64,000 bases of DNA, taken from positions 28,799 to 92,798 of the IMG/VR virus record IMGVR_UViG_3300025141_000047, one strand, 5' to 3'. This document shows positions 10,685 through 49,852 of this stretch, piece by piece (positions within the stretch are counted from its first letter, which is position 1; every line of letters begins with the position of its first letter). This DNA is from a virus. The notes under the pieces are model-generated. The model saw only the letters and a list, made by a program, of their open reading frames with translations. It did not search any database and was not told where the DNA came from. Both the position numbers and the translations under genes were made by a program.

Positions 10685-10685
10685 C

Positions 10686-12113: not shown

Positions 12114-12114
12114 T

Positions 12115-12489
12115 TTATCCCTCCATCACTTTTTGGTTATGCCTCTCGAAGAAATCATCCATTCCTTCACCATCGCTCGTTGTGCGTATGGGTTGCCCCT
12201 TATTGCCTCTTCCATGCTTCATTTGCCTTTCAGCCTGTTTCTTCATGCGTTCAATCATCTCCGCCTTCTTGTCGTTAGCGGCTCTAACGATCATATAATC
12301 AAGCATTACACGGTCTGGGGGTTGTTCATCCCAAAAATGAGGGGGGCATCCAAAATGTGTTCCAAGACTGAATGTGATGGCTTGATAAGAAAGAATTGTT
12401 GCCTGTTGAGCATTTAGTGTGGGGCGTTCCTCTTCGGATAAATCCTCATCAAGAAACCCTACTAAATCCTCATAGGTTAATCCAAAGGG
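12115..12489 (-). CDS. Tail assembly chaperone, -1 frameshift extension (gpGT-like)
   Basis: The frame of track ORF 12115..12306 stays open upstream to the slippery heptamer at 12489-12483 (GLTYEDLVGFLDED...FGCPPHFWDEQPPDRVMLDY...). Confidence 0.75.
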   Translation of the reverse strand, partial: PFGLTYEDLVGFLDEDLSEEERPTLNAQQATILSYQAITFSLGTHFGCPPHFWDEQPPDRVMLDYMIVRAANDKKAEMIERMKKQAERQMKHGRGNKGQPIRTTSDGEGMDDFFERHNQKVMEG

Positions 12490-12833
12490 CTTACACCACC
12501 CGCAAACTGCCCGATGATGTCATTTAAATCGGGGAGAACGGTCTTGACAATTGCGCCAACTTCTGGTGTGAGATTTAAAAGATCGGCTTTTGAAAGTGCA
12601 GGTTCGGTTTTTTGGATGCAAGTTGAAAATACATACTTCCAATAGCCGCCCAAATCAATAGTTGGTGCAACTTCACCATCAGCATTCGTGGCGAATGAAA
12701 CAAATTGCGACATTGCTTCTTGTTGCGCCACCCATGAAAGGGGTTTGACAAAAACAACCAAAGTTCCGACAGGGGTTTCAAGTTCGTGTCGAATCGGCGT
12801 GTTGCTCAAAACAAAAGGATTATTCTTCTGCAT
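12477..12833 (-). CDS. Tail assembly chaperone (gpG-like)
   Basis: Start MQKNNPF at 12833. Sits between tail tube and tape measure genes and ends at the slippery site. Confidence 0.75.
   Translation of the reverse strand: MQKNNPFVLSNTPIRHELETPVGTLVVFVKPLSWVAQQEAMSQFVSFATNADGEVAPTIDLGGYWKYVFSTCIQKTEPALSKADLLNLTPEVGAIVKTVLPDLNDIIGQFAGGVSPLD
12483..12489 (-). other. Programmed -1 frameshift slippery site C CCT TTG
   Basis: X XXY YYZ heptamer in the correct phase, one codon before the chaperone stop; the -1 frame is open for ~124 codons. Confidence 0.75.
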
Positions 12834-13170
12834 AATCCTCAACCACTTCTTCTTCTTCTTCAACTTCTTCTGGAGAATCATGTTCAAGCAAACGTGCAAT
12901 CAATTCATCCTTCTTTCCAGATACGGTCAAATCTCGATTTGTTAATTCAACTCGGAGTTCAGTGACGGTCATTGCATCCCATCGGTTTGTTTCAACTTCT
13001 TTGAGGGGGGCAGGTTCGCCCCGAACTGATACTGCAAGGTCGGGAATTGATGTGTGAACTTTCACATCATCAGCCGATAAACCAGGTCCCGCTTTTACAG
13101 AAACCCCGTCAATTCGCCAGTCCAAACTTACTCTTTTTCCATCAACATTTACTGTCCCTGTCAATCGCAT
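12820..13170 (-). CDS. SAP-domain protein with acidic tail
   Basis: Start MRLTGTV at 13170 (GGTGA SD). WDAMTVTELRVELTNRDLTVSGKKDELIARL matches the SAP motif. Confidence 0.75.
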   Translation of the reverse strand: MRLTGTVNVDGKRVSLDWRIDGVSVKAGPGLSADDVKVHTSIPDLAVSVRGEPAPLKEVETNRWDAMTVTELRVELTNRDLTVSGKKDELIARLLEHDSPEEVEEEEEVVEDYAEE

Positions 13171-13210
13171 TATATTCACCGTTGCATTCTTTTGTCTTAA
13201 AGCCTCATCA

Positions 13211-15394
13211 TCAAAGCGTGAAATAAGGCGAGTTCTCCGAAACTTTGAGGTGTCGAACTGCCAGTTCCACTTGAACAATTACCGCCCCTTTGTCTTCTGG
13301 GACTTGATGATCGGCTTTAACAATCGTATAATCCTCAATGGTAATTGTAGCATTTTCACGTGTGCTATTGCTTCCACGCTTTTTCATGCTCAATGTAATG
13401 TCATTTGTGTTTTGATGATGCTTCCGTGTGCGAATCTGTTCCCACAGTTGGTCATCCTCAATCATTGCGCTAAAAGAAAAGGTGTATTCTCGTTGCGCTT
13501 CTGTAATGTCAAGAGGCATTTGAACAGCACCAAGTTGGACTTGATCTGTATCAACAGTATTGCCCTCATAGCCTCGAATAAAATGTCGTGCTTGATTCCC
13601 ATTAGCGATGCTAAACTCAACCTGTGTTGCTCTCAATACAGGTCGCCCAAATACTTCAAAACTCAAGTCTTGGAACAGATATGGCTTTTCACCATTGACA
13701 GCAATACCTGATGCTTTCCTGTTAATTGCTGAATTTGCAGTATTCTCAAACATTCGGTGAGGGGTGAAAACATTTGCCGTGTCGGTATAATGTCGGCCAC
13801 CCTCATAATCAACCTGCAATTTGACTTCGCCCTCAGTATTTGCACTAAATCCGATTTGTTGCACTTTGCATCCATTGTAAAGACGTAGCAGTTGGTTAGA
13901 ACCAGGTGTTGCGTTATCCCTGCGGAACGATTGCTCAATCATGAAAGTTGGAAGCGAGGTATCTCCAAAGAGGGTGTGTTCAACGCCAAATTGGAGTTCT
14001 TTTGTTGTTCCATCAATGTTTGGACTCCCTCTTGAATCTGTTGCGGTGTATTGGAGTCTTTCAACGCCAGCCGATCCAACGGCGTGAGCGAAAAAGAAAG
14101 GTTCTTCAATATACACAAATGCACCACTTACTGCAATTACACGGCGAATCTCATTCTTGAATACAGTCGGCAACGTGTCGTCTTGGCCTGGAATTGTATG
14201 CGTGTCTTTGTCAATAATTTGGATATAATCACCTGCGGCAAACTTTCCAGCGATTGTTGCGCCGAGATTTACTCGCACATCTCTTCGAGCGATTGCAGCA
14301 GCGAGAGGTGCAAGGAGATAAACGGTATTCCCTGCTACTACTGCTCTTGCTAATGCGCCAGTATCAATATCTGCCGCCCCTGTTAAATTTAGTAAGGTAA
14401 TCCCCGTATATGACCCAAACAAAACATCGCCTGTGCTGCTTAGGGTTTTGAATATCCCTCCATTTGCAGCATCAACCGATACGTGGGTATCGGATGGAAT
14501 GTCGGTGAGAAGTGTAATCACACTTGCTGCATCTGTTGAAGTGTTGGTCTTTGCCCCAACAAGAACATGATCTCCCGAAACCAAATTGCTTGTTCCTGTC
14601 AAAGTGCTTGCAGAAACAGCACTAAGGGAATCCGTATCGCCTGTCCCGTATTGCTGTGCTTGATACACTTTAGTTGCGGCAGCGATGTTAAGCGGTTGTT
14701 CTCCGCCTGTAATGCCGCCTGAGCCATCGGAAAGCGTGACAAATTCGCCCTTGCTCTTTGCTACGTGTCCTCCAAGAGCGTATTTCATCCACCTAAAGGT
14801 GTGAGCGTTAAGGGCAAATGAACCGCCAGCAAGGGTTTCTTTACCACTTGTAAGGACATTTACATCTCGACCCATGCCGATGATGTGTTGTTTGCGAACA
14901 TCAATCTCAGGCTCAGGGAGGGAGAAGTTGTCAAGAAGTCCAAAGAATTGATCGGTCTTGACCTGTTGCGCTGCATCAGTCATAGCCGATTCAAAAGTTG
15001 GAGATCGTAGTGAATCAAGAATAAGCAAATCGGATGCGGCGGCATTAGTCGCTGTGGCCGTCACTAATGCGGGTTGAACGGTGATTGTTCCAGCCGTAGT
15101 ATTGTTGGCAATCACATAATAAGTGCGCTTTGTTGAAGCATGGTCATCCGATGTAAAGGCACTTCCACCTGTAATCCTCAAAATACAACCAACAAGGGCG
15201 TTATCTGGGATTTCAACATCAGTTCCACTTCCTGTATGCCAATAATTTGCCGTTCCAATGGTGATAAGGCTTGTATTGCCCGATTTAGAAGTGTGAGTCC
15301 AGCCCGTTGCTGCCCCATCACCAGTCGCCATCAATCCTGTTTCTTTACCCCACGATACTTCGGCAATGTCGCCCTTGTAAATTGTTCCAACCAT
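13211..15394 (-). CDS. Major tail (tube) protein with large internal insertion
   Basis: N-terminal EVSWGKET and C-terminal FMIEQ...YNGCKVQQIGFSANTEGEVKLQVDYEG resemble siphovirus tube proteins; synteny supports it. Confidence 0.7.
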   Translation of the reverse strand: MVGTIYKGDIAEVSWGKETGLMATGDGAATGWTHTSKSGNTSLITIGTANYWHTGSGTDVEIPDNALVGCILRITGGSAFTSDDHASTKRTYYVIANNTTAGTITVQPALVTATATNAAASDLLILDSLRSPTFESAMTDAAQQVKTDQFFGLLDNFSLPEPEIDVRKQHIIGMGRDVNVLTSGKETLAGGSFALNAHTFRWMKYALGGHVAKSKGEFVTLSDGSGGITGGEQPLNIAAATKVYQAQQYGTGDTDSLSAVSASTLTGTSNLVSGDHVLVGAKTNTSTDAASVITLLTDIPSDTHVSVDAANGGIFKTLSSTGDVLFGSYTGITLLNLTGAADIDTGALARAVVAGNTVYLLAPLAAAIARRDVRVNLGATIAGKFAAGDYIQIIDKDTHTIPGQDDTLPTVFKNEIRRVIAVSGAFVYIEEPFFFAHAVGSAGVERLQYTATDSRGSPNIDGTTKELQFGVEHTLFGDTSLPTFMIEQSFRRDNATPGSNQLLRLYNGCKVQQIGFSANTEGEVKLQVDYEGGRHYTDTANVFTPHRMFENTANSAINRKASGIAVNGEKPYLFQDLSFEVFGRPVLRATQVEFSIANGNQARHFIRGYEGNTVDTDQVQLGAVQMPLDITEAQREYTFSFSAMIEDDQLWEQIRTRKHHQNTNDITLSMKKRGSNSTRENATITIEDYTIVKADHQVPEDKGAVIVQVELAVRHLKVSENSPYFTL

Positions 15395-15404
15395 TTTTAA
15401 TTCC

Positions 15405-15845
15405 TCATATTATTGTTTCTAAAGCATCGGCAAATGTAATCACTTCGGCTTGCATTGTGTATCTAAAGAACCTCTTGCTACGGTCCGACAAATCGGTTCT
15501 CGTCTTGAAGATAACCCTATCAAAGTCGTTATTGTTGCCCTTTCTGTGTTTATGAATGATGCGCCGAACCTCGTCACGGAGGGCGGCAAGTCGCTCTCGA
15601 CTCTTGACAGTGCGTATGTCAATGGTGAGATTGACGTTGATATTCACAAAATCAAATAGCAGTTCTGGTTGCGCTTCATTATGAGCCGTTTCAAAAATAC
15701 GGATTACATCATGGTCTTGAAGTCGCCCTCTTTTACCCTCTCCACGATCCAATACCGTAATGTCCTCAATAGAAGGTTTTGGCGATACATTCCAGTTGGA
15801 ATCCAACAAATCACGTATGGCGAGTAAAGCATCCTTAGCCATCAC
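15405..15845 (-). CDS. Putative tail terminator/completion protein
   Basis: 146 aa ORF just upstream of the tube gene; size and position fit. Confidence 0.55.
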   Translation of the reverse strand: MMAKDALLAIRDLLDSNWNVSPKPSIEDITVLDRGEGKRGRLQDHDVIRIFETAHNEAQPELLFDFVNINVNLTIDIRTVKSRERLAALRDEVRRIIHKHRKGNNNDFDRVIFKTRTDLSDRSKRFFRYTMQAEVITFADALETII

Positions 15846-20176: not shown

Positions 20177-21325
20177 TCAGGCGGATAGGTCACGGATCTT
20201 GCCGTGTGCGCCATAAAAGAGTTGCCAAAGTTCACCCATTGTGTGGAAGAGTCCGACTTGACCAAGACGGTTGATACCGAATGGATCGCCAGTCTCGATT
20301 CCGCTTTCGTGGTAAAGAGTTGGTTTTGCTGTGCAGAAATACATATAGTCTGTATCAAGCATATAGATGCGAGATAGGCCACCAGTTGGTGCATGAACGT
20401 CTTTTGCAGGGATGATAGGAACGCCGTTGTAGGTTGCGACTACAAAGCCACCTTCCATACCAGGGATTCCTTGAACACCGTTCACGGAGGGGGTGACTCT
20501 CTTCATCTCAGTAAATCGTTGCTGAGGCTGCAAGAGTTGTTGAATTTTCTCGATGGTATCATACCCTGTGAGCATGACCTTTGGCTGACCTCCACGTTCC
20601 CAGACACTTCGGAACATTCCATCAAGAATGTTCAAGGTCAAAGGTCGTTCAGCACCAGCAGTTCCCATATCCACGTTTGCATCGAACCAGTCGTTTGCGC
20701 CAGTGGAGTTGCGAGTAATTGAATACATATTGTGGTCTGTCAAAGCCGAAATATCGCCAAAGGAAGCAGGTTCACTGAAAGACGATGATGTAGCACGATC
20801 AATGGATTCAAAGTTGTTTCCAGCGACAGTATCAACATCTCGAAGAAGCATCTTGTTGATTGATTCAGCGTGGGATTTTGACATCTCCATCTTGATAACT
20901 GCTCTTGCATCGCCCAGTCCATCATCCTTGTCTGCAAGGAACATGGCGGTTTCGCTGAGGTCAAACTTGGAAGCCACAGTCTTTGGCTTGGTGCTGACTT
21001 CTGCAAATGTTGGCTTGGTGGAATCAGGTAGCGCACCGTTCTCAGGAAGACCTACTGCATCAGTTGGCTTTCCAGTCACGACACGCCATCCAGACTTCTC
21101 CCAGGGTTTCTTAGGAAGAATTGAGAATGCGTTGAACTCTTGGTTCAATTGCGACCAGACTTTGCGGCCAAATATCGCTTGGTAAGTTCCAGCAGTTGAG
21201 GACATCAACGGTGAATCAGCCTTGAGTAAGTCTGTTCCGCTATATGCCCATGCGTTTGTTCCAGCACCCGCACCGTAGTAAAGGCGTTCCATGTCTTCGA
21301 TTGTTCGGATATATCCTTGCGTCAT
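20177..21325 (-). CDS. Major capsid protein (HK97 fold, magrovirus/HGTV-1-like)
   Basis: Start MTQGYIRTIEDMERLYYG with GGAGATGA SD. IFGRKVWSQLNQEFNAFSILPKKPW is recognisable from magrovirus-type MCPs. Follows the protease. Confidence 0.92.
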   Translation of the reverse strand: MTQGYIRTIEDMERLYYGAGAGTNAWAYSGTDLLKADSPLMSSTAGTYQAIFGRKVWSQLNQEFNAFSILPKKPWEKSGWRVVTGKPTDAVGLPENGALPDSTKPTFAEVSTKPKTVASKFDLSETAMFLADKDDGLGDARAVIKMEMSKSHAESINKMLLRDVDTVAGNNFESIDRATSSSFSEPASFGDISALTDHNMYSITRNSTGANDWFDANVDMGTAGAERPLTLNILDGMFRSVWERGGQPKVMLTGYDTIEKIQQLLQPQQRFTEMKRVTPSVNGVQGIPGMEGGFVVATYNGVPIIPAKDVHAPTGGLSRIYMLDTDYMYFCTAKPTLYHESGIETGDPFGINRLGQVGLFHTMGELWQLFYGAHGKIRDLSA

Positions 21326-21354
21326 CTTTTTCATCTCCATTTATTTTTTGATTT

Positions 21355-22683
21355 TCACTCGCCTCGCAAAGCACGTTGAGCGAGCATTTCTGCTGCTCGC
21401 CAGCCATCAAGGTCTGTTCCCATTGCATTGAACTCATCATGAGTCGGCACACGGATGGAAGTTGTAGGTTGGGTTGGTGAAACATCGCTCTTTTGTAGCG
21501 ATGCGTTCTCGGACTTGAGCATTGCGATCTCTTCACGGAGGGAGTTGAGTTGAACTCCAACATCGTTTGCCTTTCGCATCTCAATAGCCTGAGTTGTTTC
21601 AGCGTTGTATCGCTCTTGCCATTCTTTCTCAACAAGACCCTTTACTGCTTCTTCATCACGGAGAGCAGCGTAGGTTCGATAGCCCTTTTCCAATGTTTCA
21701 GGAGTCAAGGACTTGATAACGTTTCCATTGCCTTTTGGTGCGTTCATTTTCATTGATGGCGCACGTGGGGCTTTGATGACATTTTGATTGCCGCTTGGGG
21801 ATGGGAGAGAAGGATAGGATGGCTCGGATGCACCTTCGCCAGAACCTACTTCATCGCCTTGTCCTCGATGGGAATATCCGCCACGACCTTGTTCAAGAAG
21901 GTATGCCTTCTCTAAGCCGAAGTGACCACGAACTGCATTCAAATCAACGCCAGATTCATGAGCGAACTTTTCAAGTGTGGTGATATAGTCAAGAGCCGCT
22001 TCATCCGCATGGGATTTCTGGGTGTCTTGGTATTCATCGCTCTTTTCTTCCTTTTCTTCGGATTTTTCGCTCAGTTCTTTGAGGACTGAGTTCAGTCCAG
22101 CCTTTATTTCATTCAGGGTTTCAGTATTGCTCATATTATCATCTTCCATTTTTAGTATTGTGTAGGTTGATTCTGGGTTTATTCCTTTCTTGCATAGCGT
22201 GATTTCATGCAATTCAAGATCGGTAATCTCTCTATGGTTTCCAAGTTCTGGTGTGGTTTTACTCACACGGAATAGGGCTTGACCGCCAATCGAGAATGCT
22301 CGCAAGTCACCGTTGCGAATTTGCTTTTGCACTTCACGTGCTTTTTGAATGTCGCTGCGGATTTTGCAGACGACGAAGAGGCCGTGATCATCAACTTCGG
22401 ATTTCCAAACACGGCCTTCTGCATCGGTGTGGTCGCCAACGACTTCACCAACTTGGATTCCTGAATGTGCTAACTGAACATTGCGGAATGCTTTGTTATC
22501 CATGAATTGACCGAATGCTTTCTTTAGAGCAGCAGTTGGGATTCTATCTCCCTGCTTATCGACCATATCAACAGATGCGTAGCCAGCAACAAAGAGTTCG
22601 CCTTGACTACCTGATGACTTCAACAAAAAATCCGATCCTTCCGCATTCCATGATGCGGTGTGGAGTTCGAGACTGGTCGCCAT
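21355..22683 (-). CDS. Prohead protease (HK97 family) fused to a scaffold-like C-terminus
   Basis: GYASVDMVDKQGD, catalytic H (LAHSG), FSIGG and LHEITL motifs; acidic coiled-coil C-terminus. Confidence 0.9.
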   Translation of the reverse strand: MATSLELHTASWNAEGSDFLLKSSGSQGELFVAGYASVDMVDKQGDRIPTAALKKAFGQFMDNKAFRNVQLAHSGIQVGEVVGDHTDAEGRVWKSEVDDHGLFVVCKIRSDIQKAREVQKQIRNGDLRAFSIGGQALFRVSKTTPELGNHREITDLELHEITLCKKGINPESTYTILKMEDDNMSNTETLNEIKAGLNSVLKELSEKSEEKEEKSDEYQDTQKSHADEAALDYITTLEKFAHESGVDLNAVRGHFGLEKAYLLEQGRGGYSHRGQGDEVGSGEGASEPSYPSLPSPSGNQNVIKAPRAPSMKMNAPKGNGNVIKSLTPETLEKGYRTYAALRDEEAVKGLVEKEWQERYNAETTQAIEMRKANDVGVQLNSLREEIAMLKSENASLQKSDVSPTQPTTSIRVPTHDEFNAMGTDLDGWRAAEMLAQRALRGE

Positions 22684-28206: not shown

Positions 28207-30009
28207 TTATTGACTGTTGCCCCTTGAACCGCCCAAACCATGCCGTTTTTCTGTTTCTTTGATTTGGTGGTCAATGGCTTTTTCCTGTGGAGATTTATGT
28301 TCTCTTTTGTCCGTCTTTACAGATGCAGCCGAAGGCGCACCATCAACACGTCGAATCATACCTGGACTTTCACCGCCGCTTTGACGTGTGTTTTCGCTTT
28401 GAGTCCTCAAAGGCGGTAAATCAGTTCCAGCAGTTGTAGCGAGGGAATCAGCAAAAGGAATAGACCCCCTGCTTGAATCAAAATTGGTTCGCTTAAACAT
28501 CATGTTTGGATCGGAGAGCATTTCATCTCCTTTTTGCACAGGTTGTCCTCCGCCCTGTTGTTGCTGCTGTTGTTGAGCCTGTGCCGCAGCGACTTCTTGA
28601 GGGTTTGGTTGCTTGAAATCAAAGTGAAGTATTTTGTCATCTATTCCATCACGGAGGTTTGCCTCATAACCTGCTTGCTTCATTTGCATCATGTTGCGAA
28701 TAGCCATCTCATCTCTTCGCAATTGCATAATTTCATCCTCTTCCTCATGTGGATTTAGAAGAAGTTCCCATTCTTTGATTTCAAAAGCCTCAGTAATTTG
28801 AGGGAATAATACCCGATTGTAAATTGATTGTGCAAATGCTACGGCTCGGTTGCTCACCACGATCTGCATTCCTTCGTTATTAAGTCCACCACCAGACACA
28901 TCATTCATGAAAACATTTGATACTCCAAAGAATGCTGCGATTCTTTGTCTTATGTCATCCTTAATTGGGATATATTGCAGTTCTTCGAGGGTGTCCATCA
29001 TACGCACATACTCAAGACCTCCACGCCCAGATTCGGTTTCAACACCAATTGTTGGAATGTAAGACGGATCACGCTCAAGGTGTTCCTGAATGTTTCTGGC
29101 GGTTCGCTCAACCGTTTCCATGTTGGATGATTTGATGACCATAACGCCTCTCGGCATACGCTTCTTTTGATACGCTGAATAGACATAATTATCCATAGCG
29201 ATGAGGGTATTGACCTGCCTCCACATTGTTGCGATAGGGCTTCGGCCATACAATTTACTGGGCGACCACTTACTGAGATGAATGACCTCGCCCTCAGTAT
29301 ATACTTGTCCTTTTCCAACACCTGCAAGGTTCATGTAATGGATCGGAACAACAGGCATCCCCGTTGCAGGGCATTTGTCCTTTGGGTCGCTGGTTCGATA
29401 AGTCCTATCAACCAATGAAGTGTATTGGCTTCCACCACGAACCCCTCTTTTATCAGCAAGCATACGCATGAAAATAGGGTCGGCACGTGTAATCTCCTTC
29501 ACCCTAAAAAACATGACCTTCTTTGTATCGGGATCAACAAAGTATTCCTTTGTAAGTATCAGGTAAGCATCATCAACAACGTTCAAGTCCATTTCGACTT
29601 CTTTCATAATTTCAATGAAACTTTGCATCATTCCATTTTTGCTTTCAAGTAATGCCTCAGCGTATTCCAATTCGGATTTATCCGCTTTACGGACTTCTCC
29701 GCCGCATTTTCCACAGGATTCAACCTCTTGATGGAACTTTTCATCACATTCCCTGCATTTTACTACAAACTTTGGTTTCCACCCGTAGCCTTTTCTAAAT
29801 GCTTCAACAGAAAGGTGATTGAGAATTGAGCGCAAAACTACGCATTCAAAGGTGGCTGCATAAAGAGCAGGTATCGTAATCCCTTGTAAAAGAGGGGGTT
29901 CTTGAATCCCAGATTGAAATAATGGCATTGTGGGCATGGGCGTTGTGTGCCTTTCCATGTCAATGCCTATCGCTGAAAATAAGCGTTCCATCCTCTCTTT
30001 ATCAGCCAT
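28207..30009 (-). CDS. Portal protein with Zn-ribbon insertion
   Basis: DLNVVDDAYLIL, EVIHL...LYGRSP, MPRGVMVI and IAAFFGVS portal motifs; CRECD...CGKCG insert. Confidence 0.9.
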   Translation of the reverse strand: MADKERMERLFSAIGIDMERHTTPMPTMPLFQSGIQEPPLLQGITIPALYAATFECVVLRSILNHLSVEAFRKGYGWKPKFVVKCRECDEKFHQEVESCGKCGGEVRKADKSELEYAEALLESKNGMMQSFIEIMKEVEMDLNVVDDAYLILTKEYFVDPDTKKVMFFRVKEITRADPIFMRMLADKRGVRGGSQYTSLVDRTYRTSDPKDKCPATGMPVVPIHYMNLAGVGKGQVYTEGEVIHLSKWSPSKLYGRSPIATMWRQVNTLIAMDNYVYSAYQKKRMPRGVMVIKSSNMETVERTARNIQEHLERDPSYIPTIGVETESGRGGLEYVRMMDTLEELQYIPIKDDIRQRIAAFFGVSNVFMNDVSGGGLNNEGMQIVVSNRAVAFAQSIYNRVLFPQITEAFEIKEWELLLNPHEEEDEIMQLRRDEMAIRNMMQMKQAGYEANLRDGIDDKILHFDFKQPNPQEVAAAQAQQQQQQQGGGQPVQKGDEMLSDPNMMFKRTNFDSSRGSIPFADSLATTAGTDLPPLRTQSENTRQSGGESPGMIRRVDGAPSAASVKTDKREHKSPQEKAIDHQIKETEKRHGLGGSRGNSQ

Positions 30010-31243
30010 TTATTACAGCCTCCTTAATCTCTTCAAACCCTTCAATAGAAAGATTCCATGATTTCAAAAGTCTTACTTGCTTTTGAGGTTTAGAATGTGA
30101 ATATGTGAGGCATTTTTTGGCATCCTCGTCATCCTCAAGAGCCTTTTTCAATATCATGATTTCACTTCTCTTTTGAGTCAAATGTGGCAAAGACACATCA
30201 AGTGCCTTAGCGACTGAGAACTCCCCCTCAATCACTAAACCCTTGCCTTCGGCTATAATTCCTCGCACACCGAGTTCCGTGTTAAGTGCATAGGCATATT
30301 CCTTGCATACCCTTGAATTAAAAGGAAGAATGACTCTTGGAACTCCACGTGGGCTAATTTCAATTGTGCCGCCAACTTCATAGAGATCGCCAATCAAAGC
30401 CCCTGCGTCTTTCACTATGATGTCGTTTTTCTTTAATCCATAAAATAAACCTTTATCATTGTTTTTTGAGCCTGAACCCAATGCTTCAATGTCATATAGG
30501 AATCCATGTGATTTGATGAGCATAGCAATTTTGGTGGTGCTGCCCTTTACACCATAAGATTGTAGCGATTGGGTATTCATGCTTCCATATTCGTCAAGAA
30601 CCTCATGCGCTTTCTGTAAAGAATTTCTTTCTGGTCGGCTTAAGCGTTCCTCTTTTGTAATTCGATTTGACCAACTTTCGTAAGCCGAGTCGTTTCCATC
30701 CGACCAACTCTTCACAAATCGCCTAAATGGAATCTCCAAAGAATCTGTATTCTTGTGCAACATATTCCAATCAAAGTCTGTAAAGGGGAGAGAATCAACA
30801 ATATCGGGTGATACTGAGGGGAATGATTTCAACAGCGACTTTCTTTCTTCAATAATCAAAGGCTCAATGATTTGAACCATCTCATCTCTTCCAGATTTTA
30901 TGAATAGGTCAATTATCTCCGAACCCTGCATACCGAAATTATCAACAAACCATGTTTTTGAAACTGGAACAGGCGATGTAGCGGTTTCAACTTCGGTTCC
31001 TGGTTGATTGTTGCCGCCACCCATGTTAGCAGAATCAAAACCTTCGATTGCTGCGTCTTCACGTGGACTCCCTGCTGACTCATCCTTTTGTTGAGATGCC
31101 GCTTTTTTCTTTTGGTCAAGCAACTTCTTTTCTTGGAGATTGTTCTTCAATTCCATTTCAACTAACTTAGAATCAAGAACCTTGATAATCGCATCTGTTG
31201 GCGATTGAACGTCAAAAACGCCTTCTATTCTTTTATCAAACAT
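30002..31243 (-). CDS. Protein with degenerate C-terminal LAGLIDADG-like domain
   Basis: AGALIGDLYEVGGTI...ALDVSLPHLTQKR resembles the LAGLIDADG helix and the LPYL-x-x-K end motif; acidic catalytic residue not evident. Confidence 0.5.
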   Translation of the reverse strand: MFDKRIEGVFDVQSPTDAIIKVLDSKLVEMELKNNLQEKKLLDQKKKAASQQKDESAGSPREDAAIEGFDSANMGGGNNQPGTEVETATSPVPVSKTWFVDNFGMQGSEIIDLFIKSGRDEMVQIIEPLIIEERKSLLKSFPSVSPDIVDSLPFTDFDWNMLHKNTDSLEIPFRRFVKSWSDGNDSAYESWSNRITKEERLSRPERNSLQKAHEVLDEYGSMNTQSLQSYGVKGSTTKIAMLIKSHGFLYDIEALGSGSKNNDKGLFYGLKKNDIIVKDAGALIGDLYEVGGTIEISPRGVPRVILPFNSRVCKEYAYALNTELGVRGIIAEGKGLVIEGEFSVAKALDVSLPHLTQKRSEIMILKKALEDDEDAKKCLTYSHSKPQKQVRLLKSWNLSIEGFEEIKEAVING

Positions 31244-32672
31244 TTGCCCACCCTAACCTACTTTGCCATACTTCTGCATCTAAAATCACGATGCTTTCTC
31301 GATATTCTTTTGTTGCTTGAACGCCCAATGCAAGAGCAATAACCATGTCGTCATGACCGCCCAAACTCTCCATACGCCCGTTATCCAACATGGTGAACGT
31401 GGAGAGTTCAGTCAATAAAGTGTTCATCAATCTCCGTGTCCCTCCTTCGTCTTTGTAGGGTATATTCAACTTGCCCTGTTCAAATTGCAGTTGGAGGGTA
31501 TGAATTAAAGCCTCTTTCTTCATACGGCTCATATTGAATGGTTTTATTGGGAGATCGCTTATCTCGTTTAGCACTTGATTGAATGCAATTGCGAAGTTAT
31601 TTGTTTCAAGTTCAATGATAACAGGGTTGAATCTGGCATTCAATTCTATGATTTTATCAATTTGAGATGAAAAGTCCATTCCTTTCTCATGGTGGGTGTG
31701 GATAATGTGTTTGTTTTTATTCTCATCAACTGCAATAACCATCATACAGGTATAGTCGGCTCTCCGATCTGCTGAGATTGCAGGATCCCAACCAATGTAG
31801 TAATTGTAGGCTTCACCATCATGTGGATAATAAGACAACGCCAATTCCTCGTCTTTGACCTTGTTTAGCACTTCTTCAGGGAATAGACTCGCCTCGCTCG
31901 CAATTGGTTTGCACAGGTATTCTCTTGTGAATGCAATAGAGGTCATGTCATTGCGTCTTGAATTTAGAGCATCCAAAGACCAACGCTCAGGAAACAAACA
32001 TTCTCCTGTTTGCTCATTGATAGCAGGGTATTCTCGAACAGCGTATGATTTCAACTTCTTCAATTCGGCGTAAAGATCGGTATATGAAAACGGAGTCCCA
32101 ACAATGCACAGTTGAGCCGTGTGGTGAAGAACTGGAAGCAAAGCCGTGTAAAACCATGAGGATATATGCTTGAGTTGGGTTTGTGCTTCACTTGACAAAA
32201 TATCGTCAAGCACCACGATTTGAGGGTGCGCCCCACGAACCGCTTTTCCAACAGACATAGCCGAGATAGATGATTTGTTGGTGAACTTGAACTTCTGTTT
32301 TGCCCAACCTCTCTTTGGTTTTAGGTGTTGGAGAGCAGGTATTGATTCAATCAATTCATTCATTTTTCCCATGTGTTCAATAGATTGGTGCTGGCTGTGG
32401 GAAAAGAACAATACTTCTGTGCCTGGATTGTAAGCCATTTTCCAAAGGAGATAAACTCGATAGAAAACAGACTTTCCATGATCACGGCTGGCTATAATGC
32501 AGGTTTTACTGTTGTTTTCCGACAAATCATACCATTCTTGATGGAACTTTGTTAATATCCAGGGGTTCTTTTCATCATATTTTCCACAGATTTCTTCAAA
32601 AAAATACTTGAAGTCACGGCGACCCATTTCAAAATCAACATTAGCAGTTAATTGTTTAAGACCCTCCGACAT
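31236..32672 (-). CDS. terL: Terminase large subunit
   Basis: Walker A ASRDHGKS, Walker B VVLDDIL, coupling motif GTP, nuclease IGWDPA...DYT and HDDMVIALAL. Confidence 0.95.
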   Translation of the reverse strand: MSEGLKQLTANVDFEMGRRDFKYFFEEICGKYDEKNPWILTKFHQEWYDLSENNSKTCIIASRDHGKSVFYRVYLLWKMAYNPGTEVLFFSHSQHQSIEHMGKMNELIESIPALQHLKPKRGWAKQKFKFTNKSSISAMSVGKAVRGAHPQIVVLDDILSSEAQTQLKHISSWFYTALLPVLHHTAQLCIVGTPFSYTDLYAELKKLKSYAVREYPAINEQTGECLFPERWSLDALNSRRNDMTSIAFTREYLCKPIASEASLFPEEVLNKVKDEELALSYYPHDGEAYNYYIGWDPAISADRRADYTCMMVIAVDENKNKHIIHTHHEKGMDFSSQIDKIIELNARFNPVIIELETNNFAIAFNQVLNEISDLPIKPFNMSRMKKEALIHTLQLQFEQGKLNIPYKDEGGTRRLMNTLLTELSTFTMLDNGRMESLGGHDDMVIALALGVQATKEYRESIVILDAEVWQSRLGWANV

Positions 32673-44255: not shown

Positions 44256-44768
44256 ATGTCCGATGTGAATTTGATTGAAGCGGTGCATACCCTACGATCA
44301 TACAACATTGCATTAAATGGAATGACAAATGACCCTCAAAGCATCTCTTCATGGATTACTCGATATGCTGAGAACTCAGGAAAAGCCCCTAATTTTACCC
44401 AAGAGGCCGCTATTGGTTTGCTTTGTCATTTAGGAAACCCAATTTATGTGTATGCAAATCTAAGCCCTCTTCAACAACAATGGTCTGGGATATTCGCAAG
44501 TGCGGAACAGGTTTTGATTCAAGAAGCAAACTGGCAAAACACCCAACATTCGCAAAATAGCCAAACCTCTTTTGCACGATTGTTTGGAACAGATAAAGAA
44601 TGGATTCAACTTTACGCTCAATCACTACAATATCCAATGGATATTTCATTTGAGTATTTTGTGAATAAAATTATCTCCGATCTCCGAACCTGTCAAGGTT
44701 CAAGTGGTGCAGGTGGAATCTCTCATTCACCAATGACTCCGCCGAGTATGCAACAACAGATACCTTAG
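44256..44768 (+). CDS. Hypothetical protein, the only credible plus-strand gene
   Basis: 170 aa ORF filling a gap with no competing minus-strand gene; stop overlaps the convergent MTase stop. Confidence 0.65.
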   Translation: MSDVNLIEAVHTLRSYNIALNGMTNDPQSISSWITRYAENSGKAPNFTQEAAIGLLCHLGNPIYVYANLSPLQQQWSGIFASAEQVLIQEANWQNTQHSQNSQTSFARLFGTDKEWIQLYAQSLQYPMDISFEYFVNKIISDLRTCQGSSGAGGISHSPMTPPSMQQQIP

Positions 44769-47059
44769 AATAAAGTGCGTTGCGCTGGCTGAGGATTCTT
44801 TGCACGTTCCCATGCTGATTGGAATGCGTCTTGATCAATGTTCGCCATAGCCATAAGTTCTCCAACCGTTCCTCTTGTGTTTGGATCGGAACTTGAAAGG
44901 TCTTTTCGACCCAATTCATGGATTGTAAATCCAGCATCACGCAACGGTTCAACAATTGAAGGGTGCATTGAATTGAAAACCGTAGTCGGAATGCCCCTGT
45001 TCTTTGCATCAATCATTTGTTGAATGAGCCGTTCTTGCTCATCCTTTCCAAAGAAACCATGTGCGCCCTCTTCACCAAAGTAAGGAGGGTCAAATGTCAA
45101 TAGGTTCTTGTCGGCTTTCATTTGGTCTTTGATGTCGTCATAGAACTCAAAGGCATTACCTGTTCTCCAATCCCAGTCTTTCATAGCATCATGCCAGGGT
45201 GTGAAATCATGTTCCCCGACCCCCCCTCGAATTGGAGTTGGTCGGAAAGCGTTGCCCCCTGGTTGAATACGGCCTTTGTATCGGTCTTTTTCAGGGTCGT
45301 AAAATCCAGCATCCTTCATTTGTTGGAAAAATGAACCTGCTAATTCTTCATCTTCGGGGATATGTTGCTTTGAACGTGTAGTTCCTGGTGGAGTTGAATA
45401 TGGATTATCCCATGAAGGCATTTCTTTTCCTTTGCCGTATCGAACCAAACTGTTGAAGCCAGTCAATTGAAGCATATAGAAAATCTCAGCCATTTTATCA
45501 TACTCTTCGGGAGTTGCAGTTCCACTTGCTGCCTTTTCCCTCAATCCAGCGTATTGATTGCGGAGATTGTAAAAATGTGCTGGAATAAAAGTTCTGTTGC
45601 CTTCACCGAAACGATTCTTCATCTCTTCCGTCATTGTTCCGATATTCATTTGACCTAATGTTGGATGAGGGATTGTGATTGGTTCGCCCACCCCCACATT
45701 GTATTGTTCAGGGTCTATTTTCATTGGTTCTCGGATGATTCTTCGCATTAAATTGCCTATATCTGGGTTTATGTCGTTAATGATTGCTCTTGATGGTTTA
45801 AACCCCAATGAGAGTCCTCCACCACCACCGAATGTTTCAATCATTTCACGATCTCCAAGCGTTTCACGCAATGCGCCCATTATTTGGGAATACATGGGAT
45901 TGTTTTTGACTCCTTGAAGTCGAAACGCCGTAGGTAATGCTTGCCTTCGGCTAAAATCGCCAGACGATGGATGCGGCATCTTTTCAAGACTCATTTCATC
46001 TCGTATTTGTATGCTCTCTAAAGCCCTGCGGATAACATCGCCAGATAAAGCAGCATCCCATGATTCAAGACCTGCATTTGTCAAATCACGTGGATCGAAG
46101 TAAATTCCATGTGTTCCTGTGGTGATTCCACGTGATAATGCAGGGCGTAAATCCCCTGTAATGCTCATTGGAACTGGAACCCCTTCAAATCGGTGTCCTG
46201 ATGGATCAACATATTCCAAATAACGGCCTCCGCCTTGTTGTATGCTATCTCTCACCCTATCTGGTGCTTCATTTTGAGCAAACTGCAAAGGTATTTTCAA
46301 CAATGGATCAACTGAACCAGATACTTTGTAGTCAAGCGGCTCACGCCAGGGATGCCCTGCATCGACACGATACCTTCTATTATCAAATTGGAATCTCTTT
46401 CTTCCAAGAGAACGGTCTTTGATGTCATAAACGTCATACCCAAATCGAGGGGCTTCAATCAATTGCCCACCTGCATTCCAAGAAACTTGGGCATCGCCGT
46501 ATGGATTGCGATCCAAAACAATTTCTTGATTCATCCCTAAAATCTCTTGAGGACTACGCTTTCCTTCTATCAAGTCCATGAGTTCTTGATGTTCTAAATT
46601 TCCTCTCGACCATAGGTGTTCAGTTCGTTGTGGGTTTTTTCTTGGGTCTTTTTCCCTCAACACATACGCATTTTTTTGGGCGTTCCTACTCACGTCAAAA
46701 TGAGGGTCACGGAGAGGTAAAAAATTAGAGATTGATGTTAAACTATCCCCTATTTTCGGAAAGTTCCTTTTTACTGTCAAAACGCCTGTATCTCGCCTAA
46801 TATCTCCACTTGGCAAGCGACCAGGTGATATATGACCTGCATTCGCTAAATTTCTAAATGCCGATATGTTGAATGGTCGTTCCTTTTTATCGCCAGAAGG
46901 ATAATTGCGCCAATCTTCACGGAAAGTGTTTAATTGACCTTTCATGTTCTCAAGAGGATATGCGTTCACGCCATCTAATGAAATCGTTCCTAATTCTGGC
47001 CGATCTCGCTTTTGAGTATCGAGGCTATCCCACCACGCCTTCTCGAATATGTCCGACAT
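44765..47059 (-). CDS. Unknown N-terminal domain fused to a Dam-like (D12 class) N6-adenine DNA methyltransferase
   Basis: FRLQGVK, ETFGGGG, IINDINPD, GFNSLVRY and FDPPY motifs; C-terminal QRTLF. Confidence 0.85.
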   Translation of the reverse strand: MSDIFEKAWWDSLDTQKRDRPELGTISLDGVNAYPLENMKGQLNTFREDWRNYPSGDKKERPFNISAFRNLANAGHISPGRLPSGDIRRDTGVLTVKRNFPKIGDSLTSISNFLPLRDPHFDVSRNAQKNAYVLREKDPRKNPQRTEHLWSRGNLEHQELMDLIEGKRSPQEILGMNQEIVLDRNPYGDAQVSWNAGGQLIEAPRFGYDVYDIKDRSLGRKRFQFDNRRYRVDAGHPWREPLDYKVSGSVDPLLKIPLQFAQNEAPDRVRDSIQQGGGRYLEYVDPSGHRFEGVPVPMSITGDLRPALSRGITTGTHGIYFDPRDLTNAGLESWDAALSGDVIRRALESIQIRDEMSLEKMPHPSSGDFSRRQALPTAFRLQGVKNNPMYSQIMGALRETLGDREMIETFGGGGGLSLGFKPSRAIINDINPDIGNLMRRIIREPMKIDPEQYNVGVGEPITIPHPTLGQMNIGTMTEEMKNRFGEGNRTFIPAHFYNLRNQYAGLREKAASGTATPEEYDKMAEIFYMLQLTGFNSLVRYGKGKEMPSWDNPYSTPPGTTRSKQHIPEDEELAGSFFQQMKDAGFYDPEKDRYKGRIQPGGNAFRPTPIRGGVGEHDFTPWHDAMKDWDWRTGNAFEFYDDIKDQMKADKNLLTFDPPYFGEEGAHGFFGKDEQERLIQQMIDAKNRGIPTTVFNSMHPSIVEPLRDAGFTIHELGRKDLSSSDPNTRGTVGELMAMANIDQDAFQSAWERAKNPQPAQRTLF

Positions 47060-48183
47060 TATGCCCCCTCCCCTCGATTAAGCCTTATTTTCCCAACCTG
47101 TGGTTTGTTGATATATGAAACATTAGGAACATCACCATCCATACAGGCCAAGCAATTTGCGCTCTCTTCTGGACCGTATGTTGCGTTTGGAACGCAAGCC
47201 TTTGCCGATGAATTGGGGTCATCTTTCGGACAAAAATGCGTATCTCCAACTATTGCTGAATCAGGCAACATTCCCGTATTGACAAGCCATTCATCCCATA
47301 CTTCTGATCTCAATGTTTGAGGATGGTCTAAGACCCTGCGCTGTCCTGGATTCAAAACTCCGTGTTCTCCAACAACATTTCGATTCCATTCATCATCAAT
47401 CGTTTGATTCCTAAACGGCATTGACATTCTTAATCTAACATTTGGAGGCAACGCATCATGAGCATAACCTCTTGCTGACAAGACTTTATTCACCATTCCA
47501 AACTCTCTTGTTGGAATCCAATGAATCACGTCTGGATTCAAAGTCGCCATATCAAGAAGCATAGCCAAATGTTCAGGTGAATGCAAATCTCCCGAATCAA
47601 ACATACGGAATACGGGATAGCCGTTATGTGATTCTGTGGGGATCTGTGAAGCCAATTGAGAATGATAACCGATAGGGTCTTGCAGCATATCATTGTAAGC
47701 CTTTAATTGATTTCGAGTCGCATTGTTGTTATTGTAGGTGAATCCCTCAGCATAGCACCCATAGCAAGTTGAATCTCTTTTGTCTTTCAAATGTTTTCCA
47801 GTCGCACATAGTTCCGTTGGATATGATGTTGAGCGTGAAGGCATTGTTGTTGTTTCAGCCAAATAAACAGGCAAACGTCTATCCGAATCCCCCATTGGAT
47901 TGCTAAAATCAATGTTAGGAAGGTTTCTTGTTGCGTGGTGTTCCGCCAACAGGTTTTGATTCAAAGGATAATTCATTTTGACCTTACGAAGATCGGTCAT
48001 TTTTCTTTCGCCTTCGGGCGAATTGATGTAATTTTGAACTTCAATACCGCCCTTTGGGAACTTTTCAGGGGCATAAAGCAACTCATTCCACGTGAAATCC
48101 ATTGGGTCAATTTGCTTTTGACCTCTTGGACCGTCAATCAAAGGCATTTTTAACAATGACCAAACGGTTTCAAAGGCTTGCAT
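47059..48183 (-). CDS. Leader-bearing Gp88-like Cys-rich protein (possible Fe-S/radical-SAM-like fold)
   Basis: MQAFETVWSLLK leader; C...CYGCYA, FRMFDSGDL, WIPTRE and C-terminal CP...C...CLAC. Confidence 0.65.
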   Translation of the reverse strand: MQAFETVWSLLKMPLIDGPRGQKQIDPMDFTWNELLYAPEKFPKGGIEVQNYINSPEGERKMTDLRKVKMNYPLNQNLLAEHHATRNLPNIDFSNPMGDSDRRLPVYLAETTTMPSRSTSYPTELCATGKHLKDKRDSTCYGCYAEGFTYNNNNATRNQLKAYNDMLQDPIGYHSQLASQIPTESHNGYPVFRMFDSGDLHSPEHLAMLLDMATLNPDVIHWIPTREFGMVNKVLSARGYAHDALPPNVRLRMSMPFRNQTIDDEWNRNVVGEHGVLNPGQRRVLDHPQTLRSEVWDEWLVNTGMLPDSAIVGDTHFCPKDDPNSSAKACVPNATYGPEESANCLACMDGDVPNVSYINKPQVGKIRLNRGEGA

Positions 48184-48188
48184 AAATC

Positions 48189-48533
48189 TCAATCCTTCTT
48201 CACTTTAGCATGAAGCCGCCTAAGCGTTTCACTTTGGAGGTTTGCTGGCTTTCTGGTTGCAGGTTTCTTTGGAGGCTCATTCCCCTTTGCCCTCGCAATC
48301 ATACGATCCATCGTTGAATTTCCAGTTGGGTTGTCTTTCTTTGGTTTTTCAGTGGCCTTATTTTCCTTTGGCTTATTTATTTCAGCCATATTATCATCAA
48401 CTGCCGCATCAATATCCTTGTTGCGGTCACTTTCATTCCACCATGCTTCTTTAGCGAGTAAATCCCATACACGGTCAAAGCATTCGCCAGCCATGTGATC
48501 GGCAAAGCGACTTTGGCTATCAATTTGACTCAT
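48189..48533 (-). CDS. Leader-bearing small basic protein
   Basis: CFDRVWDLLAK near the N-terminus; coupled on both sides. Confidence 0.6.
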   Translation of the reverse strand: MSQIDSQSRFADHMAGECFDRVWDLLAKEAWWNESDRNKDIDAAVDDNMAEINKPKENKATEKPKKDNPTGNSTMDRMIARAKGNEPPKKPATRKPANLQSETLRRLHAKVKKD

Positions 48534-49852
48534 CTAAAGTCGTCAAGAAGAGTCTTTTGTTGATTTGAGCCGAGAATCCCACGACCTATTGCATTTGATA
48601 CTGAACCGTGAACAACATTCCCAATCATTTGATCAAGCGCATTTATTCTTTTCCCTGATGAGGCTATGTAAGGAGATGCTGACATAGCCGATGAAATATC
48701 ATAATCGGGGCGAATGCCTTGAATCATCATTACTTCTTGTGGAGTTAATTTACGATTGTAGGCGAGGGTGGGCATATTGTGAGTAATTCCTGTCACATGA
48801 GAAGTTATTGGTTTTCGATGTTGGAATGTGGTCGGCAAACCTGTTTTTTTGCTTGTTGCGTTTAAATCATGCCATTGTGGATATTCGCCCTTGTGTTTTC
48901 CAGTTCCAGGATTTGTCCCGCCCGATTGAGATATGAAACTTGTATTCATGAGGTATTCTGCAACTTCTGGGCTGATGTTTCCCTGTGCAAGCATCCCATC
49001 AATCACGGCTTTCCTTTGTGGCTTATTTTCTTGCTCATCACGTTCAAGGTGCGGCAAATAATCCAAAACGCTTGGACTCATTTTTGTCCCAGGTATTGGT
49101 TTGCGATCACGATGATAATGCGTTGGTTCGGCTTTCCAACCTTCGCCAATGAATGTTCGGCCTCTTGTTGAAGGTGCGCCAAAATTGATTGCATCCAATT
49201 TAGGATGGTTGCGAAGCAATTGCATTACACGCTTTTGAAACGGTTTGCTCACATAAGGTTCAAGCAAATGTGGGTTTTCTTGAATGAATTTTGCTACTGC
49301 TGGTGCTTCTTCAAGCGACCATGATTGAAGGTCAATGTCTGGGTGCTTCATCATCTGTTCAACGGTGTAAAGTGCGTTTCCGATCATTGGGAATGCCGAC
49401 ATACGACTTTCATGAATTTCTTCATCTGTTTTACCTGCTGGTCCAGTCCTTCTTTGGGCATTTGTGAATGCTTGACAAGGAGGTGAGGCGTGATAATGGA
49501 TTTTGCGACCTTGTGATAAGTCGGCGTATTGTTCGACTAAATCATCAGGATGAAGCATACCTTGTTCTGTTCCGATATAGCCCTCAATGATTTTTCCATC
49601 ATGGTTTGCTCGCCTTACATCATTTGCTGCTCTCCATGCTTCAACCGATGCTAATGTTGGAATCCCTGCTCTCGATAGCCCCTCATCCATGCCGCCCATC
49701 CCTGCAAACTCCGTAAAAGCCCCCCAGTCATTACGCATTGGCATTTGAGGGAAACGTCTGTCAAAATCAGCCCTCATCTGTTGTAAATCCCAATCTGTGG
49801 GGGCTTTCATGAGCATAGATGACCAAGCCTCCTGAAATAAAGGCTCGCTCAT
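48530..49852 (-). CDS. Leader-bearing C5-cytosine DNA methyltransferase
   Basis: Motif I EFAGMGG, IV SPPCQAF, VI LEEA, VIII TRGRTF, IX RKLTPQEVMMIQG, X QMIGNVV; leader LFQEAWSSMLMK. Confidence 0.88.
   Translation of the reverse strand: MSEPLFQEAWSSMLMKAPTDWDLQQMRADFDRRFPQMPMRNDWGAFTEFAGMGGMDEGLSRAGIPTLASVEAWRAANDVRRANHDGKIIEGYIGTEQGMLHPDDLVEQYADLSQGRKIHYHASPPCQAFTNAQRRTGPAGKTDEEIHESRMSAFPMIGNALYTVEQMMKHPDIDLQSWSLEEAPAVAKFIQENPHLLEPYVSKPFQKRVMQLLRNHPKLDAINFGAPSTRGRTFIGEGWKAEPTHYHRDRKPIPGTKMSPSVLDYLPHLERDEQENKPQRKAVIDGMLAQGNISPEVAEYLMNTSFISQSGGTNPGTGKHKGEYPQWHDLNATSKKTGLPTTFQHRKPITSHVTGITHNMPTLAYNRKLTPQEVMMIQGIRPDYDISSAMSASPYIASSGKRINALDQMIGNVVHGSVSNAIGRGILGSNQQKTLLDDFR

Follow-up and report, generated by a model that had tools for sequence, protein, structure and literature searches.

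Putative clamp-docking peptides end all six DNA methyltransferases found in an apparent archaeal tailed virus

Eukaryotic DNMT1 is tethered to the sliding clamp PCNA by a motif of the PCNA-interaction peptide (PIP) type, and methylation follows replication. DNMT1 is a large enzyme that carries this motif in its regulatory region, towards the N-terminus. In phages T4 and RB69, the polymerase gp43 and the proteins gp33 and gp55 carry C-terminal peptides that bind the gp45 clamp. Archaeal PCNA is bound through the C-termini of PolB, the PolD subunit DP2, the RFC large subunit, FEN1, RNase HII/H2 and NreA, with the consensus QxxLxxFx; PolB, FEN1 and RNase H2 are recognised as clients that bind by a C-terminal PIP (PMC7776575). 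The internal proteins of T4 (IPI-III and Alt) are unrelated to one another and share just a capsid-targeting sequence, which is removed by the prohead protease (PMC3012670). Magroviruses, tailed viruses of ~100 kb linked to Marine Group II/Poseidoniales, encode a DNA polymerase, a clamp and a clamp loader in 26 of 26 genomes (PMC5434244). Here we describe two DNA methyltransferases (MTases) encoded in a 64,000-nt stretch, hereafter the window, of IMG/VR virus record IMGVR_UViG_3300025141_000047. Both carry a short C-terminal tail that resembles a PIP motif and a short N-terminal leader. The whole record (G000) is linear and 92,798 bp long, and the window is its bases 28799-92798.

The two enzymes and their tails are listed below in window coordinates.

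44765..47059, minus strand: D12 (Dam-like) protein, 764 aa, two modules, made up of leader, N-module, internal leader, D12 domain and tail
44768..44782, minus strand: tail of the D12 protein, QRTLF-COOH, aa 760-764, behind a Pro/Gln-rich linker (full end NPQPAQRTLF)
48530..49852, minus strand: divergent C5 cytosine DNA MTase (PF00145), 440 aa, with leader and tail
48533..48562, minus strand: tail of the C5 MTase, QQKTLLDDFR, aa 431-440 (C-terminal ten residues SNQQKTLLDDFR; end NQQKTLLDDFR)

The D12 protein matched PF02086, the D12 N6-adenine MTase family, at 36.4 bits (cut-off 22) and phrog_56 (DNA MTase) over aa 499-745 (E = 5.5e-18), and it holds the D12-class motifs FGGGGG (aa 410-415) and DPPY (aa 657-660). 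The C5 enzyme matched PF00145 at 46.4 bits (cut-off 22) as well as phrog_116 and phrog_363, and shows the C5 motifs FAGMGG (aa 49-54) and PPCQ (aa 124-127). Its ENV motif probably reads LEEAP and its QxRxR motif TRGR, both assigned by eye, and its activity is predicted. Because orthologues begin MSEALF... or MGEALF..., its start is most likely the ATG at 49852. The Pfam and PHROG matches of the window MTases end 15-19 residues ahead of the stop (15 residues for PF00145 on the C5 enzyme), placing the tails outside the fold. The translations agree with the original prediction, made from the letters of the window, that the C5 MTase ends QQKTLLDDFR and the Dam-like MTase QRTLF, and that both have leader-like N-termini. 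The leaders read DIFEKAWWDSL and PLFQEAWSSMLMK. Its claim that both MTases are tailed also held and proved too narrow, since all six MTases of G000 bear tails.

In a non-overlapping set of 93 G000 open reading frames (ORFs), the pattern [QK].[TS]L[FWL], which was defined post hoc from data already seen, occurred within the last 14 residues of 6 proteins; the shuffle mean was 0.11, with a maximum of 2 over 2000 shuffles. The six tailed proteins are precisely the six DNA MTases of G000, and the chance of that set is 1/C(93,6) = 1.3e-9. This excess far exceeds what post hoc choice of a pattern could yield. Whole-record family scans of G000 detected no DNA MTase beyond these six. The four that lie outside the window are as follows, in coordinates of the record.

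10425-10982: DNA MTase with tail QTTLFQEGEE
12000-13241: DNA MTase with tail QMTLW
14344-15627: DNA MTase with tail QKTLFQDW
20746-21972: DNA MTase with tail KKSLFDY

Four families are represented among the six (PF00145 and PF02086 twice each, PF01555 and phrog_11619 once). Outside the window, the family matches were phrog_11619 (E = 1.7e-45), PF00145 (E = 8e-60), PF01555 (E = 7.5e-36) and PF02086 (30.9 bits). The tails are encoded by differing codons, indicating conservation at the peptide level and thus selection on the peptide rather than on a DNA cassette. Descent of the tails from one shared DNA cassette was rejected on the same ground.

Tails were retained among relatives of the window enzymes. 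In three sister contigs (G001-G003), whose MTase proteins are 57-96% identical to those of G000, every orthologue was tailed, in the forms QRTLF, QQRLF, QKTLFDQF, QRRLMDYN, QMKLW, KRLFDY and QTTLF; the window C5 orthologues end QKTLFDQF and QRRLMDYN. The D12 family is small, since 5.8 billion proteins yielded just five clusters, and its tailed members (G001-G003, P0002 and P0003) end QRTLF, QQRLF or QQTLF, the last being the end of both P0002 and P0003. The window C5 enzyme was compared with 1.84 billion representatives in a full HMMER search. About 7 of its 12 closest full-length homologues (28-57% identity) were tailed, several also with a leader, and the tails of distant homologues read QSKLTDF.., QRTLLEQY, QTRLF, QTNLFDW, QKRLF, QKRLW and QQRLY. 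A viral-contig scan with the window C5 MTase as single query gave no match. Canonical PIP boxes (QPSLLDFL, QIRLSDYW and QRSIFDEW) were seen on MTases of other relatives.

A second C5 enzyme, encoded in the early arm of the genome, showed the same behavior. Among its best 120 homologue clusters (45-100% identity), 75 end in Q..L[FW]; others end QKSIFDF or Q(Q/E)ELGWL, and the untailed clusters stop directly after the last conserved helix. In a control of 80 IMG/VR C5 MTases 39-68% identical to this enzyme, 77 stop at the end of the fold (...MRWIGERI...) and the tail was present only on the three nearest. A second set of 80 C5 MTases had the tail in 11. The annotated phage collection held no tailed close relative of the early-arm enzyme. 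Over the range of 28-100% identity the tail was kept while the linker varied. Because homologues keep the tail and phage cousins lack it, these comparisons mark the tail as a lineage-specific add-on, retained as the preceding linker drifts. The conservation in homologues that the original prediction named as its check was therefore seen among orthologues, early-arm clusters and distant homologues of the window C5 enzyme alike.

A link to the sliding clamp came from relatives that encode their own replication proteins. G011 (99.9 kb) is syntenic with G000 (capsid protein and terminase 77%, portal 67% identity) and encodes an RFC-like ATPase, PolB and a 260-aa protein directly upstream of PolB. 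The AlphaFold model of the 260-aa protein had a predicted local distance difference test (pLDDT) score of 88.9, and its top Foldseek matches were archaeal PCNAs (E ~1e-14, probability 1.0). Judged by this model, the protein is a PCNA-fold clamp.

L223:7454-8437: RFC-like ATPase of G011
L223:10996-11778: G011 clamp, PCNA fold, missed by the Pfam PCNA models
L223:11775-14129: PolB of G011

In G011, PolB ends AKPLF, a C5 MTase ends QKTLW and a leader-bearing MTase-like protein ends GRLF, and L[FW]-COOH ends only 4 of the 99 proteins. In G009, a complete genome of 64.8 kb, the C-termini read TEWL on PolB and REWL, AEWL, LGWL and SEWL on four MTases; 6 of its 84 proteins have W[LI] ends. In both viruses, the polymerase and the MTases of one virus end in a matching tail type. 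Cellular enzymes were sampled from the archaeal phylum containing a Thermoplasmata metagenome-assembled genome (31 FEN1 genes, 31 genomes). FEN1 C-termini were PIP-like in all 31 genomes, three of them ending QKTLF, QKTLF and QSRLF and others QK[NS]LFDF or QxSLDxFF. RNase HII of those three genomes (G027, G131 and G052) ends PRKLF, KTLDKF and QSKLW.

The same peptide form therefore occurs on PolB (G011 and G009), FEN1 and RNase HII. Since these enzymes are PIP clients, Q-x-T-L-[FW]-COOH would be a naturally used clamp peptide. We put the probability that the viral MTase tail is a truncated PIP-type clamp-docking peptide at about 0.7. DNA MTases would then be a new client class for the PIP/PCNA system, and no description of archaeal or viral PIP-tailed MTases was found in the literature searched. 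The original prediction had read both C-termini as PIP-box-like; this reading gains from the relative's clamp and from the ends shared with PolB, FEN1 and RNase HII, and it needs amending for QRTLF, which is truncated and is not the canonical Q-x-x-L-x-x-F/W box.

Further proteins with similar ends were observed. Two G011 ORFs are candidate clamp-docking proteins: one of 192 aa just upstream of the RFC-like gene (L223:6845-7423) ends KGATLW, and one of 63 aa just past PolB (L223:14136-14327) ends QTSLEKWGAWE. In G009, a 222-aa protein (L228:13961-14629, minus strand) ending KQAVLDWL is the sole W-L protein besides PolB and the MTases and is a candidate clamp client. Within the sampled archaeal phylum, FEN1 and RNase HII alike end in the truncated L-[FW]-COOH form in some genomes.

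The replisome of G000 itself was searched for a partner. No PolB was found in G000, G001-G004 or G005-G007, and a profile built from the G011 clamp family detected no G011-type clamp in G000-G007. Alignment of the G011 clamp family against two G000 ORFs with hhalign was negative. Pfam PCNA_N and PCNA_C were silent on G000, yet they were silent on the fold-supported G011 clamp too, making this a weak negative, and a very divergent clamp may have escaped detection. At the G011 RFC slot, the flanking genes adjoin each other in G000, and the clamp and PolB slot is occupied in G000 by a PAPS reductase and a small MTase. Compared with G011, it looks as though the core of the viral replisome has been lost or replaced inside a single lineage. 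The original prediction had allowed for a viral PCNA as partner; for G000 none was recognisable, leaving the host clamp alone available. Because G000 shows no clamp, the tails likely address host PCNA, as far as gene content can indicate.

Searches for the host gave no assignment. The thermosome-like protein of G011 matched archaeal genome contigs at ≤50% identity over many phyla, with no single lineage favored. As host links, the HMG-CoA lyase of the virus had one match (34% identity) in 121 genomes from the sampled archaeal phylum, and the large terminase (TerL) matched 0 of 401 genomes. Rhodopsin, used as a marker of surface Poseidoniales, was found in 0 of 10 genomes, and control genomes were negative too.

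The N-terminal leaders of the window MTases and the associated module are listed below (window coordinates).

47021..47053, minus strand: leader of the D12 protein, DIFEKAWWDSL, aa 3-13, kept in G001, G002 and P0005
46055-47017, minus strand: N-module, aa ~15-335 of the D12 protein, fused ahead of the Dam-like domain
45995..46042, minus strand: degenerate internal leader GDVIRRALESIQIRDE, aa 340-355 of the D12 protein, at the junction of N-module and MTase
49805..49843, minus strand: leader of the C5 MTase, PLFQEAWSSMLMK, aa 4-16, kept in G001, G003, P0168 and P0169

The leader consensus is MTAFDxAWxLLK (pattern xFxxAWxxLxK). By the strict pattern it heads 12 of 93 G000 proteins, with more recognised by eye, and it occurs in 13 of 110 proteins in G003 and in 15 of 99 in G011, the latter count including a few non-N-terminal chance matches. 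The leader of both window MTases is also common to a third MTase and to about twenty unrelated late-arm proteins; homologues P0172, P0174 and P0175 of the C5 enzyme have the AFDxAW type. A literature search found no paper containing the leader sequence. The leader-gene array of G011 also includes a gene for a thermosome-like protein, a group II chaperonin (L227:10761-12305, which is G011 90761-92305, plus strand).

Carriers of the leader lie nearly all in the late arm by the head genes, on the same strand as these; the head genes include the S78 prohead protease. As with the T4 targeting sequence, the shared N-terminal peptide joins otherwise unrelated late proteins in a genome with a prohead protease. 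The leader appears to mark module starts, which would fit either a cargo tag processed by the protease or modular gene shuffling. By analogy with T4, the leader may be a virion packaging tag, a tentative assignment that we rate somewhat below even. Nearly the same odds attach to another account, compatible with clamp docking, in which the leader is a helix for some other factor (for example an apparatus for early injection, or a group II chaperonin encoded by virus or host) or a recombination remnant of a common 5' cassette, and both MTases act only within the producing cell. The position of the thermosome-like gene and the near-identity of neighboring leaders speak for this account, as does the reliance of the packaging assignment on analogy. 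It is opposed by the strong variation of the leader peptide among paralogues with F-x-x-A-W-x-x-L-x-K kept, by its further copies within large late proteins and where modules join, by the confinement of its carriers to the late head-proximal arm with the S78 protease, and by the working precedent of T4.

The D12 protein holds two such leaders. AlphaFold2 modeled a helix at aa 3-14 of its N-terminus, at low confidence. At the site of the internal leader, relative P0005 reads GDIFQLAWESLQIEDE, and the stand-alone MTase P0004 begins MDSNVFEKAWRNYLESLQIQDE. The MTase half is encoded alone in G003 and P0004, so that the domain split is seen in relatives, and the N-module stands alone with its own leader in G011 (26% identity). 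This arrangement makes the 764-aa protein a fusion in which each of the two modules has a leader at its head. The N-module has the invariants VSGSVDP, GGRYxE and SRGxxTGTHGxYFDPxDxT. Searches of Pfam, PHROG and ESM Atlas with it returned no match, and the AlphaFold2 model of aa 1-345 from 5 sequences was unusable (pLDDT 42.8).

The minus strand holds nearly all genes of the window. The neighbors of the two MTases and the head module, which is of tailed-virus type, are listed here in window coordinates.

47059..48192, minus strand: GP88-family Cys-rich protein (PF17338, E = 6.5e-18) with leader FMQAFETVWSLLKMP, no tail
48189..48533, minus strand: 114-aa basic protein with leader-like CFDRVWDLLAKE, no tail, orthologue in G003
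20177-21340: SU10-type capsid protein
21355-22683: S78 prohead protease
28207-30009: portal protein
31236-32672: large terminase

The GP88-family gene sits between both window MTases, and its orthologue in G011 is far longer (809 aa). CheckV estimated the completeness of G000 at 88%. In the annotated phage collection, the nearest portals belong to the haloarchaeal tailed viruses HVTV-1, HCTV-1 and HCTV-5 and to one Methanomassiliicoccales virus. The early arm of G000, outside the window, encodes an ERCC4+HhH nuclease, a PD-(D/E)XK nuclease and a PAPS-reductase-like protein. These features mark G000 as a tailed virus of archaea, of the magrovirus/halovirus kind. A 123-aa early protein (G000 4088-4459, plus strand) has a weak TFIIB-repeat match and the C-terminus EQSFDDFMNR. 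This acidic F-D-D-F end resembles the LLDDFR end of the window C5 MTase and was left out of the tail count.

Several observations weigh against clamp docking, or against the packaging tied to it. Neither window tail fits the canonical Q-x-x-[LIM]-x-x-[FYW]-[FYWL]: QRTLF-COOH stops at position 5, and QKTLLDDF has Q1 and L4 with its sole aromatic at position 8 instead of 7. The tail is absent from the G011 orthologue of the window C5 MTase and in P0172, P0173 and P0176, and P0004, 56% identical to the D12 domain, has no tail. In G000, an 88% complete record, neither a DNA polymerase nor a clamp or its loader was recognisable. The pattern used for counting was chosen after the data were seen, and packaging is argued from T4. 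Poseidoniales as host is a guess from the published magrovirus association (PMC5434244); we infer PCNA as the partner, and the host was not found.

Some of these points would favor a real short linear motif whose partner is not PCNA but some other hub of virus or host, such as a replication-factory scaffold, a helicase/primase or a chaperonin, or else a C-terminal degradation or turnover signal common to DNA enzymes. The lack of a recognisable clamp in G000 and the departure of the commonest form, xTL[FW]-COOH, from the canonical consensus both fit this alternative. However, the same tail ends PolB of relatives and archaeal FEN1 and RNase HII, whose C-termini are established PCNA-binding sites (PMC7776575). 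Sister MTases carry the canonical QPSLLDFL and QIRLSDYW, and in G011 a PCNA-fold clamp adjoins PolB. We therefore regard a partner other than PCNA as improbable.

A bacterial host, with the tail acting as a beta-clamp motif of the QL[SD]LF type, is far less probable still. The bacterial beta-clamp five-residue consensus is Qxx[LM]F (the Dalrymple motif), and QRTLF, QKTLF and QTTLF fit it at the extreme C-terminus. Against this, the nearest portals come from archaeal tailed viruses, the relative G011 combines PolB and an RFC-type loader with a clamp of PCNA fold instead of a beta clamp, and G000 has the ERCC4+HhH nuclease and the weak TFIIB repeat. In addition, bacterial-phage C5 cousins are untailed and archaeal FEN1 proteins end in the same peptide. 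Coincidental PIP likeness of both C-termini, conceivable for short degenerate motifs with a pattern chosen post hoc, is already contradicted because six tails were observed against 0.11 expected, every one on an MTase, and were kept over 28-100% identity with varying linkers while same-family cousins are untailed; its probability is negligible.

If the tails dock on the clamp, the following mechanism can be proposed. The two window proteins would be orphan DNA MTases, one Dam-like and forming N6-methyladenine (m6A), the other forming 5-methylcytosine (m5C), and each would bear two short address peptides outside its catalytic fold. The C-terminal peptide (QRTLF-COOH or QKTLLDDF-R), on a flexible basic or Pro-rich linker, would dock the MTase on archaeal PCNA, that of the host. 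Docked MTases would ride the ring behind the replisome and methylate nascent viral DNA ahead of host restriction enzymes; the purpose of the tails is likely anti-restriction. The N-terminal peptide may direct the MTases into the procapsid as in T4, with possible removal by the S78 prohead protease, and packaged MTases would enter the next cell along with the DNA. We infer PCNA binding, fork-coupled timing and packaging alike. The combined sequence of events, capsid loading followed by docking on host PCNA after ejection and before viral gene expression, seems doubtful to us. Under it, a virus without its own polymerase, clamp and loader would have its protective methylation machinery seated at the replisome of its host already in the first replication round.

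Should the tails bind PCNA, archaeal viruses would have repeatedly given a clamp address to unrelated DNA-modifying enzymes. This would be a convergent counterpart of the DNMT1-PCNA pairing and a simple answer to the problem of restriction escape by nascent viral DNA. Tail types differ by lineage (xTL[FW]-COOH, QKS[IL]FDF and xEWL), and each matches the PolB of the same virus; the xTL[FW]-COOH type also recurs at the ends of FEN1 and RNase HII in some archaea. Because they are lineage-specific, tail types may offer a clue, readable from sequence, to virus-host or virus-clamp pairing in uncultured marine archaeal viruses. With the tail and the shared leader combined, cargo loading by a tailed virus of archaea becomes open to direct test.

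Compared with described systems, the genome resembles the magroviruses as a marine archaeal tailed virus of ~100 kb with a halovirus-like head and a relative, G011, that has PolB, clamp and RFC. It differs in that G000-G007 are without detected PolB or G011-type clamp. The leader is like the T4 capsid-targeting sequence in being a short N-terminal peptide that is the sole shared feature of unrelated proteins near the head genes, with a prohead protease present. The sequences are unrelated, however, the protease is of the S78 HK97 type, the leader is also found internally, and its cleavage and encapsidation here are predictions. Like the peptides that bind T4/RB69 gp45 and the bacterial beta clamp, the tail is a terminal Leu-Phe peptide on varied proteins, including non-polymerases, but those clamps are bacterial-type, whereas the clamp of this lineage, seen in G011, is PCNA-fold. 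As in DNMT1, a DNA MTase carries a PIP-type motif, clamp tethering being predicted here; unlike DNMT1, the viral enzymes are unrelated small MTases of prokaryote type (Dam-like, C5 and N4/N6) with C-terminal tails that appear to have been acquired independently. The archaeal PIP clients are matched in the C-terminal Gln, the Leu at +3, the aromatic residue and the flexible linker outside the catalytic fold. The tails depart from those clients in being borne by viral DNA MTases and in their commonest form, which stops at Q-x-T-L-[FW]-COOH without the aromatics at positions 7 and 8.

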